A DNA stretch of 64,000 nucleotides from Escherichia coli 042 (GTDB lineage Bacteria; Pseudomonadota; Gammaproteobacteria; Enterobacterales; Enterobacteriaceae), in NCBI RefSeq assembly GCF_000027125.1, contig NC_017626.1; one strand, 5' to 3'. Shown piece after piece: positions 50,401 to 51,962 of this stretch. A program made the position numbers. Numbering within the stretch: position 1 is the stretch's first letter; every line of letters starts with the position of its first letter.

Positions 50401-51962
50401 TGCCGTCAGGCAGCAGCGAAGCAAAGTGTTACTGACGTCGCTGCATGAATGGATGGTGGAGAAGAATGGTACGCTGTCGAAAAAATCCAGACTGGGCGAA
50501 GCGTTCAGCTATGTACTGAATCAGTGGGATGCCCTCTGTTATTACAGTGATGACGGTCTGGCGGAGGCGGATAATAATGCTGCGGAAAGAGCGCTTCGTG
50601 CAGTCTGTCTCGGAAAGAAAAACTTTATGTTCTTTGGCAGCGATCACGGCGGCGAGCGTGGAGCACTGTTGTACGGGCTGATCGGCACCTGCCGTCTGAA
50701 CGGTATCGATCCGGAAGCGTATCTGCGCCATATCCTGAGCGTACTGCCGGAATGGCCTTCCAACCGAGTTGATGAACTCCTGCCATGGAACGTAGTACTC
50801 ACCAATAAATAAGCGTCAATACGGTGCTCCGTTGACGCTTACGGAAATATAGGGGCAAATCCAATTTATTCGCAAGTAAAATGCCTGATAAAATACACGA
50901 ATCTAGTAATCATCAATATTTACTCTGGTCGAATGACGCGTGAAGTGGACGGCCAACAGACGCAGTCAGTGATCTACAGCCTGTTGAATAAAACCCCGGA
51001 TGCTTCCCCCGATTCTGCAAGTAATACTTCGGTTATTTGCACTATTTTATCCCTGTTGAATTTGGTTAAGCCGGTGCAGACGTGCCGGGAAACGCACACC
51101 TGAACCGGCACAATAAAATACAATACAACCCCCTGTTACTGGAGAAATGCCTGCGCCGGGGTCCGATATGGCGGTATTGTTGCAGCCTGCGGCATGGCTC
51201 AGGGGATGGATTTGATGGGCAATATGGCTCCGTTTATTCTGCGTGGTGTCACGCTGAAAGGGATTGATAGCGTCATGTTCGCGAAAGAGAAAAGAGCAGC
51301 AATCTGGCAACAGGCGATATAGTATTTGCCAGAGTCCAGAATGGATAGTCTCACTACCGTTTATCCGCTCAGTGACGCCATCACTGTGGCTGAAAAACTT
51401 CTGAGTGGCGGAATTCGCGGTCGTGCAGTCATTCAATATAGCTAATTAGATGGATGCCGAGCTCAGGCTTAGTATAATAAGTTTTAGGGGCTGCGGCCCC
51501 TTTTACTGGCTAGTTGTTGCTTCCTGAGAAGACTGATAGCGTACCGAGGTTTTGAAATAGCTCCAGAAGTCGTACACTGGCTCAGTAGAACAATATAGTT
51601 TGGAACGCATTACCGCACCTTCCCAGCCACTCCAGAAAATAGCCGCCAGTTGTGTATTATTCATATTTGAACTTATTTCGCCTGAAGATAACGCGTCGGA
51701 CAGGCAGGCCGCAACAAGTGCCTGCCAGCTCTCAAGAATATTCTGTAGTACTTTAATGAAGGATTGGGGAAGCCCCGGACTCTCCTGCATCATATTTCCA
51801 ACCAGGCAGCCGCGGGTAAAATTGTATTTTTTAATCCCCTCACAGGCATCATTGATGAAATTTTCCAGACGTACCATTGGTGTGCAGGATGATTCATGTA
51901 GATGTTTTTTGAGGTTATGCTCGAAGAAACTGTCATAGGCGTTCAGAACGGTCTGAGCATAA

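Follow-up and report, generated by a model that had tools for sequence, protein, structure and literature searches.

An AcuI/YhdH-family gene remnant joined to the backbone of a leuX-type island in Escherichia coli 042

In a 64,000-nucleotide stretch of Escherichia coli 042 (contig NC_017626.1; hereafter the window), positions 51146–51445 are, judged by homology, the C-terminal remnant of an MDR-family oxidoreductase of the AcuI/YhdH acrylyl-CoA reductase subfamily. It is very likely that the locus as a whole is explained by a dead acuI 3′ remnant joined to leuX-island backbone, into which insertion sequences (IS) later inserted cleanly. This account stands on the identity of the remnant, its breakpoint, the absence of its 5′ part, the stop codon within it, the clean insertion of the IS elements and the spread of the joint among genomes, all established below; its weak part is the making of the joint, which we infer to have been a single illegitimate recombination or deletion.

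51145–51146, strandless: novel joint of leuX-island backbone to acuI codon 229, from comparison with both native partners
51146–51445, plus strand: acuI 3′ remnant (accessory acrylyl-CoA reductase, YhdH family), codons 229–327 and a TAA stop, from nucleotide identity, NCBIfam and alignment starts

Profile and structure searches agree on the family. The remnant matched the NCBIfam profile NF051456 (acrylyl_AcuI) with E = 4.2e-30 and 104.7 bits over profile positions 230–323 of 325, and TIGR02823 (oxido_YhdH) with E = 5.3e-24; in the PDB it aligned to chain residues 252–343 of E. coli YhdH (1o89, E = 1.8e-18) and to Ruegeria AcuI (5gxe/5gxf, E = 2e-13; residues 236–327 of 5gxe). A Pfam scan of the 96-aa remnant translation gave zero matches, the piece being shorter than ADH_zinc_N requires, and NCBIfam and the PDB were needed for identification. 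These significant protein matches, above all NF051456 and 1o89, bear out a sequence-only reading of this DNA, which had seen here the in-frame C terminus of an MDR-family oxidoreductase and had staked that view on protein similarity being found.

A word-indexed protein search with the remnant returned short or partial proteins, among them the E. coli 042 entry for this fragment and several longer but still partial relatives, and no full-length parent. The intact parent was located by searching E. coli genomes with the acuI 5′ half of one metagenome scaffold (L008), where IS100 separates that half from the 3′ half. The 5′ half is found in 380 complete E. coli genomes, a few of which hold an intact gene, under the RefSeq name acuI; intact alleles are thus present in the same species as the remnant. 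The intact acuI of E. coli TUM14664 (WP_001724254.1; locus L010, 5063–6046; 327 aa) scores 478.6 bits against an AcuI equivalog cut-off of 440, and the acuR that lies tail-to-tail with it scores 266.6 bits against an NCBIfam AcuR cut-off of 247; DUF2254 and BCCT-transporter genes follow. The parent product is an NADPH-dependent acrylyl-CoA reductase of the YhdH/MDR012 family, and the remnant shares 97.7% nucleotide identity with its gene (L010, 5747–6044).

What survives of this gene is small. The remnant is homologous to the AcuI/YhdH family, but with 99 of the 327 codons it does not reach the equivalog score of 440 bits, which applies to the full length. Since homology begins at codon 229 and the GASGGVG sequence lies upstream of that codon in the parent, the remnant has neither this GxGxxG Rossmann motif nor the GroES-like catalytic domain; an uninterrupted frame with a start codon is also lacking. 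Blastn with the intact gene found the 5′ 684 nt of acuI nowhere in the window, in keeping with the earlier claim that no N-terminal portion or start codon is present. Homology, a large loss (70% of the gene) and disabling mutations are all evident, as expected of a pseudogene. From its sequence the remnant is judged dead: a native start codon and promoter are lacking, and it could not be an enzyme, because the ADH_N-type catalytic domain and, with it, the GASGGVG motif for nucleotide binding lie in the missing part. With these domains missing, NADPH-dependent acrylyl-CoA reduction or acrylate resistance would not be expected from it.

The plus-strand frame that contains the remnant runs from 51104 to 51445 and is bounded upstream by a TGA at 51101–51103. 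The C terminus previously read as an in-frame stretch is real, but the frame is broken by an in-frame TAG, and an ORF listing of the remnant frame gives two small ORFs alone.

51194–51322, plus strand: 42-codon ATG ORF inside the remnant, the RefSeq/PGAP 'alcohol dehydrogenase' WP_001422798.1, from ORF listing and annotation
51320–51322, plus strand: nonsense mutation at codon 287, CAG to TAG (Q287*), from locus comparison
51326–51445, plus strand: 39-aa ORF in the remnant frame, from ORF listing
51486–51501, strandless: G+C-rich hairpin AGGGGC-TGCG-GCCCCT between the convergent acuI remnant and acuR, from sequence and RNA fold

The remnant differs from the intact allele at 8 of 300 nt: there are five non-synonymous differences (S238G, V255M, V286I, Q287* and C326Y), two synonymous ones and one in the stop codon, which is TAA where the intact allele has TGA. 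Codon 287 is TAG in the four island-type remnants where it is readable (L001–L004) and CAG in eight compared loci (L005–L010 and L014 among them) that hold or formerly held the 5′ part or are distant relatives, and among the loci compared TAG is found solely in the truncated form. The substitution pattern would fit relaxed constraint after truncation, with too few changes for a formal test.

It is highly improbable that the remnant has been kept for a function, whether as a micro-protein translated from 51194–51322 or 51326–51445 (42 or 39 aa) or, together with the hairpin at 51486–51501, as a 3′ end or terminator context insulating acuR from convergent transcription. PGAP does call the 42-aa CDS, the remnant is widespread, and the G+C-rich hairpin does stand between it and acuR. 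However, the copies of the remnant are so alike because the island descends from a recent common ancestor, and most of the changes relative to intact acuI are non-synonymous, one of them creating a stop codon. A consensus scan of the plus strand upstream of the remnant found no promoter-like site, IS1 interrupts the remnant in some strains, and acuR itself is knocked out here by IS100. The RNA fold of 51471–51520 has −15.6 kcal/mol, and the hairpin fails the T-tail rule of the terminator scan; from its sequence it is likely to be a terminator shared by the acuI remnant and acuR.

The breakpoint can be placed to the base. In blastn against the TUM14664 locus the window is collinear over 51146–51963 at 98.2% and resumes at 53916 beyond IS100, which makes the fragment codons 229–327. 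The alignment also starts at 51146 with relatives at 78% and 73% identity and with 84%-identical acuI genes on conjugative plasmids of Enterobacter, Leclercia, Citrobacter and Klebsiella. With a slash marking the crossover, the native left partner (L011, 4001–4106) reads ...ctggaga/tacgaatgg, the native right partner (L010) reads ...cacactctgc/aatgcctgc, and the window reads ctggaga/aatgcctgc; at 51145/51146 the partners share no base or microhomology, and no IS terminus is present. The sequence-only reading had left the identity of the parent and the place of the breakpoint to a protein search; they are acuI and 51145/51146. Of the extent that it had given the fragment, 51100–51445, the end at 51445 stands, but homology starts at 51146 and 51100–51145 is unrelated island backbone.

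50864–51145, strandless: island backbone from IS2 to the joint (282 bp), not derived from acuI, from continuity in IS2-free genomes

A six-frame Pfam scan of this segment gave no recognisable coding content, and in IS2-free genomes the segment is contiguous with the DNA to the left of IS2. Its last 106 bp (51040–51145) are 99% identical to L011 4001–4106, which is backbone of other E. coli islands; in L011 this left partner adjoins an IS66-family element and then leads into a different set of genes. A 120-bp probe centred on 51145/51146, counted as present when at least 80% covered, occurs in 602 of 5,426 complete E. coli genomes (about 1 in 9), and the same joint is seen in the IS2-free loci L002, L004 and L018. 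As the joint is common to these 602 genomes, the three IS2-free loci included, the truncation predates the IS2, ISEc23 and IS100 of the window.

Two observations concern the left partner. In its native form (L011, 4080–4150; window 51129–51145) it folds as a hairpin, CCCCCTGT...ACAGGGGG, with a DNA fold of −12.5 kcal/mol (z = −2.8), and the breakpoint falls in the loop, which could be coincidence or could mark a fragile site. In L011 the 106-bp left partner directly adjoins an 82-bp IS66-family end, which the window has at 59046–59127; we considered this end as evidence of rearrangement and rejected it, judging it to be another copy of a repeated IS end.

The element nearest the remnant lies to its left and is itself interrupted.

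46993–50863, plus strand: IS2 with nested ISEc23, flanked by a 5-bp target duplication, ATTTA, at 46988–46992 and 50864–50868, from termini and duplication
48311–50842, plus strand: ISEc23 (IS66 family; tnpA, tnpB and tnpC), 13 bp from the IS2 right end, with an 8-bp duplication, GGAAATAT

We take the element at 46993–50863 to be IS2 from its termini and length, the RefSeq label being 'IS3 family transposase' only. Its left end at 46993 begins TAGACTGGCCCCC..., its right end at 50863 closes with ...GGGGCAAATCCA, and its own sequence comes to 1318 + 13 = 1331 bp, the last 13 bp being 50851–50863. Because ISEc23 is nested in IS2, the large ORFs adjoining the remnant belong to ISEc23 and not to IS2. 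The IS2-free strain SK1144 has the uninterrupted site, ggggATTTAttcgc, and reads more widely at the IS2 point as ...aaggggATTTAttcgcaag...; this empty site and the ATTTA on both sides make IS2 a simple insertion by which nothing was deleted.

These data bear directly on the proposal that the fragment is a deletion remnant created by IS activity. In favour of the adjacent IS2, it ends upstream of the fragment, as had been noted, 282 bp from the breakpoint (the earlier figure being about 240 bp), in a region crowded with IS elements. An IS-mediated adjacent deletion would, however, leave the IS end abutting the truncated gene without a duplication, whereas here 282 bp of backbone intervene, the 5-bp target duplication is intact and SK1144 shows the matching empty site. 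The identical joint, moreover, exists in IS2-free genomes. Of the three marks of an adjacent-deletion remnant (an abutting IS end, a lost duplication and a truncation that is absent where the IS is absent), none is found. The ATTTA duplication, the SK1144 site and the IS2-free joints rule the adjacent IS2 out as the agent for practical purposes, and we give this origin hardly any credence.

A different IS, since vanished, is a possible but doubtful cause; it could, for example, have inserted into acuI, after which IS-to-IS recombination, or a deletion that took the IS as well, would have left the truncation. In its favour, acuI and its surroundings have been repeatedly struck by IS in E. coli, with an IS1 upstream of intact acuI and an IS3-family element downstream of the BCCT gene. 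Yet no IS terminal sequence is present at 51145/51146, and the 106 bp to the left of the joint are ordinary backbone that continues differently in other islands; a vanished IS also needs two events where one suffices.

It is almost certainly not the case that acuI decayed in place, with its 5′ two-thirds lying unrecognisable upstream and split by IS2. Where IS2 is absent, the remnant and an ilvN-like pseudogene are separated by about 920 bp without annotation, which is roughly the right length.

About 46121–46347, minus strand: degraded ilvN-like ACT-domain pseudogene, Pfam ACT_AHAS_ss, E = 8e-12

These 920 bp, however, have no blastn similarity to the intact E. coli acuI, which is 98% identical over the remnant, or to its distant relatives, and when the 1.2 kb upstream in an IS-free genome were scanned in six frames with Pfam, the ilvN ACT domain alone was returned; decay in place is thereby refuted at the sensitivity of these two methods. 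Identity falls abruptly at 51146, from 98% to nothing, and the 99% identity of 51040–51145 is to backbone in unrelated island contexts. We also considered the 920 bp as a decayed acetolactate synthase large subunit, such that one deletion would have taken both divergent 5′ ends, and rejected this for want of Pfam support.

We therefore return to the direct fusion of acuI to island backbone. In this lineage the first 228 codons are missing and codon 229 abuts the unrelated leuX-island backbone directly, and the remnant later gained Q287* and four amino-acid changes. The joint is older than the mobile elements that now surround it: IS2, its nested ISEc23 and IS100 are later clean insertions, all with intact target duplications. 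A single illegitimate recombination or deletion, at the boundary of the acuI...shf module, probably made the joint as this module was united with a deoK-bearing island. No intermediate form of the joint was found, and neither microhomology nor an IS lies there.

To the right of the remnant, the module carries a second inactivated gene.

51503–51962, minus strand: acuR C-terminal 460 nt, collinear with the intact acuR of L010
51963–53916, plus strand: IS100, 1954 bp, istA and istB, inserted in acuR, with the duplication GCATAA at 51957–51962 and 53917–53922
53917–54119, minus strand: acuR N-terminal part beyond IS100, where L010 collinearity resumes at 53916

The 'TetR fragment' recognised earlier is indeed part of a gene, the C-terminal 460 nt of acuR, but it is not a deletion product: IS100 inserted cleanly into acuR and both parts of the gene remain, a RefSeq CDS (L001, 9102–9320) corresponding to window 53901–54119. 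With acuI truncated and acuR split by IS100, the acu module is dead twice over in this strain.

The accessory acuI is rarely intact in E. coli (loci L010, L013, L014, L003, L017 and L008). IS100 sits at about codon 140 of acuI in XJ5.2 and L008, an IS3-family element truncates the gene at codon 115 in strain 127, IS1 lies inside the 3′ remnant in w264, and in 55989 ISEc23 lies 10 bp left of the joint. Some strains, 127 and 13P484A among them, have an acuI 5′ stump at one island and a 3′ remnant at another. In the metagenome scaffold L008, a possibly unreliable one with runs of N, acuI may also have an internal deletion of about 45 codons that ends 8 bp from the window breakpoint; we rejected it as the same event, since the window keeps 8 bp that are missing from L008 and the two losses are accordingly independent. 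In a 78%-identical relative (L005, 4380–6685; L006; L007; metagenome and NCBI contigs) acuI is broken into two ORFs, and acuI and acuR lie between Peptidase_S24 (umuD-like) and IMS-family polymerase (umuC-like) genes, as if inserted into a umuDC operon. Intact acuI–acuR pairs, 84% identical to the window in nucleotide sequence, occur commonly on large conjugative plasmids from Enterobacter, Leclercia, Citrobacter, Klebsiella and Pantoea, and a plasmid of Enterobacter sp. E76 has a 97.4%-identical copy; the module is thus mobile well beyond E. coli islands.

The remnant is the left edge of a shared module, acuI remnant–acuR–DUF2254–BCCT–IS3–msbB2–virK–capU–shf. To the right of the joint, the window is collinear at 99.5–99.9% with the TUM14664 island through BCCT, the IS3-family element and msbB2 (lpxM)–virK–capU–shf. 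The TUM14664 island is at pheU, and that of the window follows a tRNA-Leu(CAA), which we take to be leuX, and an integrase gene.

25438–25522: tRNA-Leu(CAA), presumed leuX
25722–26975: integrase ORF after tRNA-Leu(CAA)
54273–55643, minus strand: DUF2254
55706–57703, minus strand: BCCT transporter
57857–58996: IS3-family element
59046–59127: 82-bp IS66-family end remnant

After 59127 come msbB2/lpxM, virK, capU and shf (block 54273–62431); virK has an internal stop in the identical strain CV839-06. To the left of the joint, the integrase is followed on the minus strand by a phosphorothioation-type defence cluster with strong PADLOC matches (region 25438–36671), and two large ORFs on the opposite strand to the Ssp genes may be a partner restriction module.

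27244–29628, opposite strand to the Ssp genes: large ORF with two HATPase-type domains
29625–31475, opposite strand to the Ssp genes: large ORF with no family match
31624–32481, minus strand: SspD, from PADLOC
32456–35800, minus strand: SspC, from PADLOC
35781–36671, minus strand: SspB, from PADLOC
45334–46119: DeoR regulator

A deoK-type deoxyribose operon lies in the region 41742–46347, with minus-strand genes for aldose epimerase-like, fucP-like permease and ribokinase-like products and the DeoR regulator; the degraded ilvN-like pseudogene comes after it, within the same region.

Comparison with known systems sets the remnant in context. The accessory acuI of TUM14664 has the same surroundings as the window, namely a convergent acuR, DUF2254, BCCT and IS3...msbB2–virK–capU–shf at 99.5–99.9%; the window copy differs in having no codons 1–228 and in carrying Q287* and four substitutions, and it lies in the leuX island behind the deoK operon, whereas the TUM14664 gene lies in the pheU island behind decarboxylase and antiporter genes. 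E. coli YhdH/AcuI (PDB 1o89, 1o8c) and R. pomeroyi AcuI (5gxe, 5gxf) belong to the same family as the parent of the remnant; these structures are of complete, active enzymes, whereas the remnant is the last ~30% of a paralogue, with no catalytic domain or nucleotide-binding motif. AcuI/YhdH is a reductase of acrylyl-CoA and gives protection against acrylate; in Rhodobacter sphaeroides a co-transcribed acuR–acuI–dddL operon includes both acuR and acuI, and BCCT transporters adjoin acuI in some marine bacteria, certain Roseobacters (PMC3338564). The enterobacterial module resembles the R. sphaeroides-type system in pairing a TetR-type AcuR with AcuI, and has a BCCT gene nearby as in some Roseobacters; it differs in that acuI and acuR are convergent, not co-transcribed, and are accompanied by no DMSP lyase gene, and in the window both genes are inactivated.

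The remnant is already known, in that public annotation marks the fragment. The E. coli 042 'putative alcohol dehydrogenase (partial)' is the same remnant, at 99% identity over the full query, in an entry whose translation skips the stop codon, and the RefSeq 'alcohol dehydrogenase' proteins WP_001422798.1 and WP_000527664.1 are pieces of it. As a name, alcohol dehydrogenase has less precision than acuI remnant, and the RefSeq micro-CDS should read 'acuI, pseudogene fragment'. The remnant itself is an ordinary pseudogene of little importance, and its practical use is in annotation hygiene and island archaeology: the joint at 51145/51146 is a precise, widely shared marker of the left edge of the module in leuX-type islands, and could help to trace the movement of the module between pheU islands, leuX islands and plasmids.
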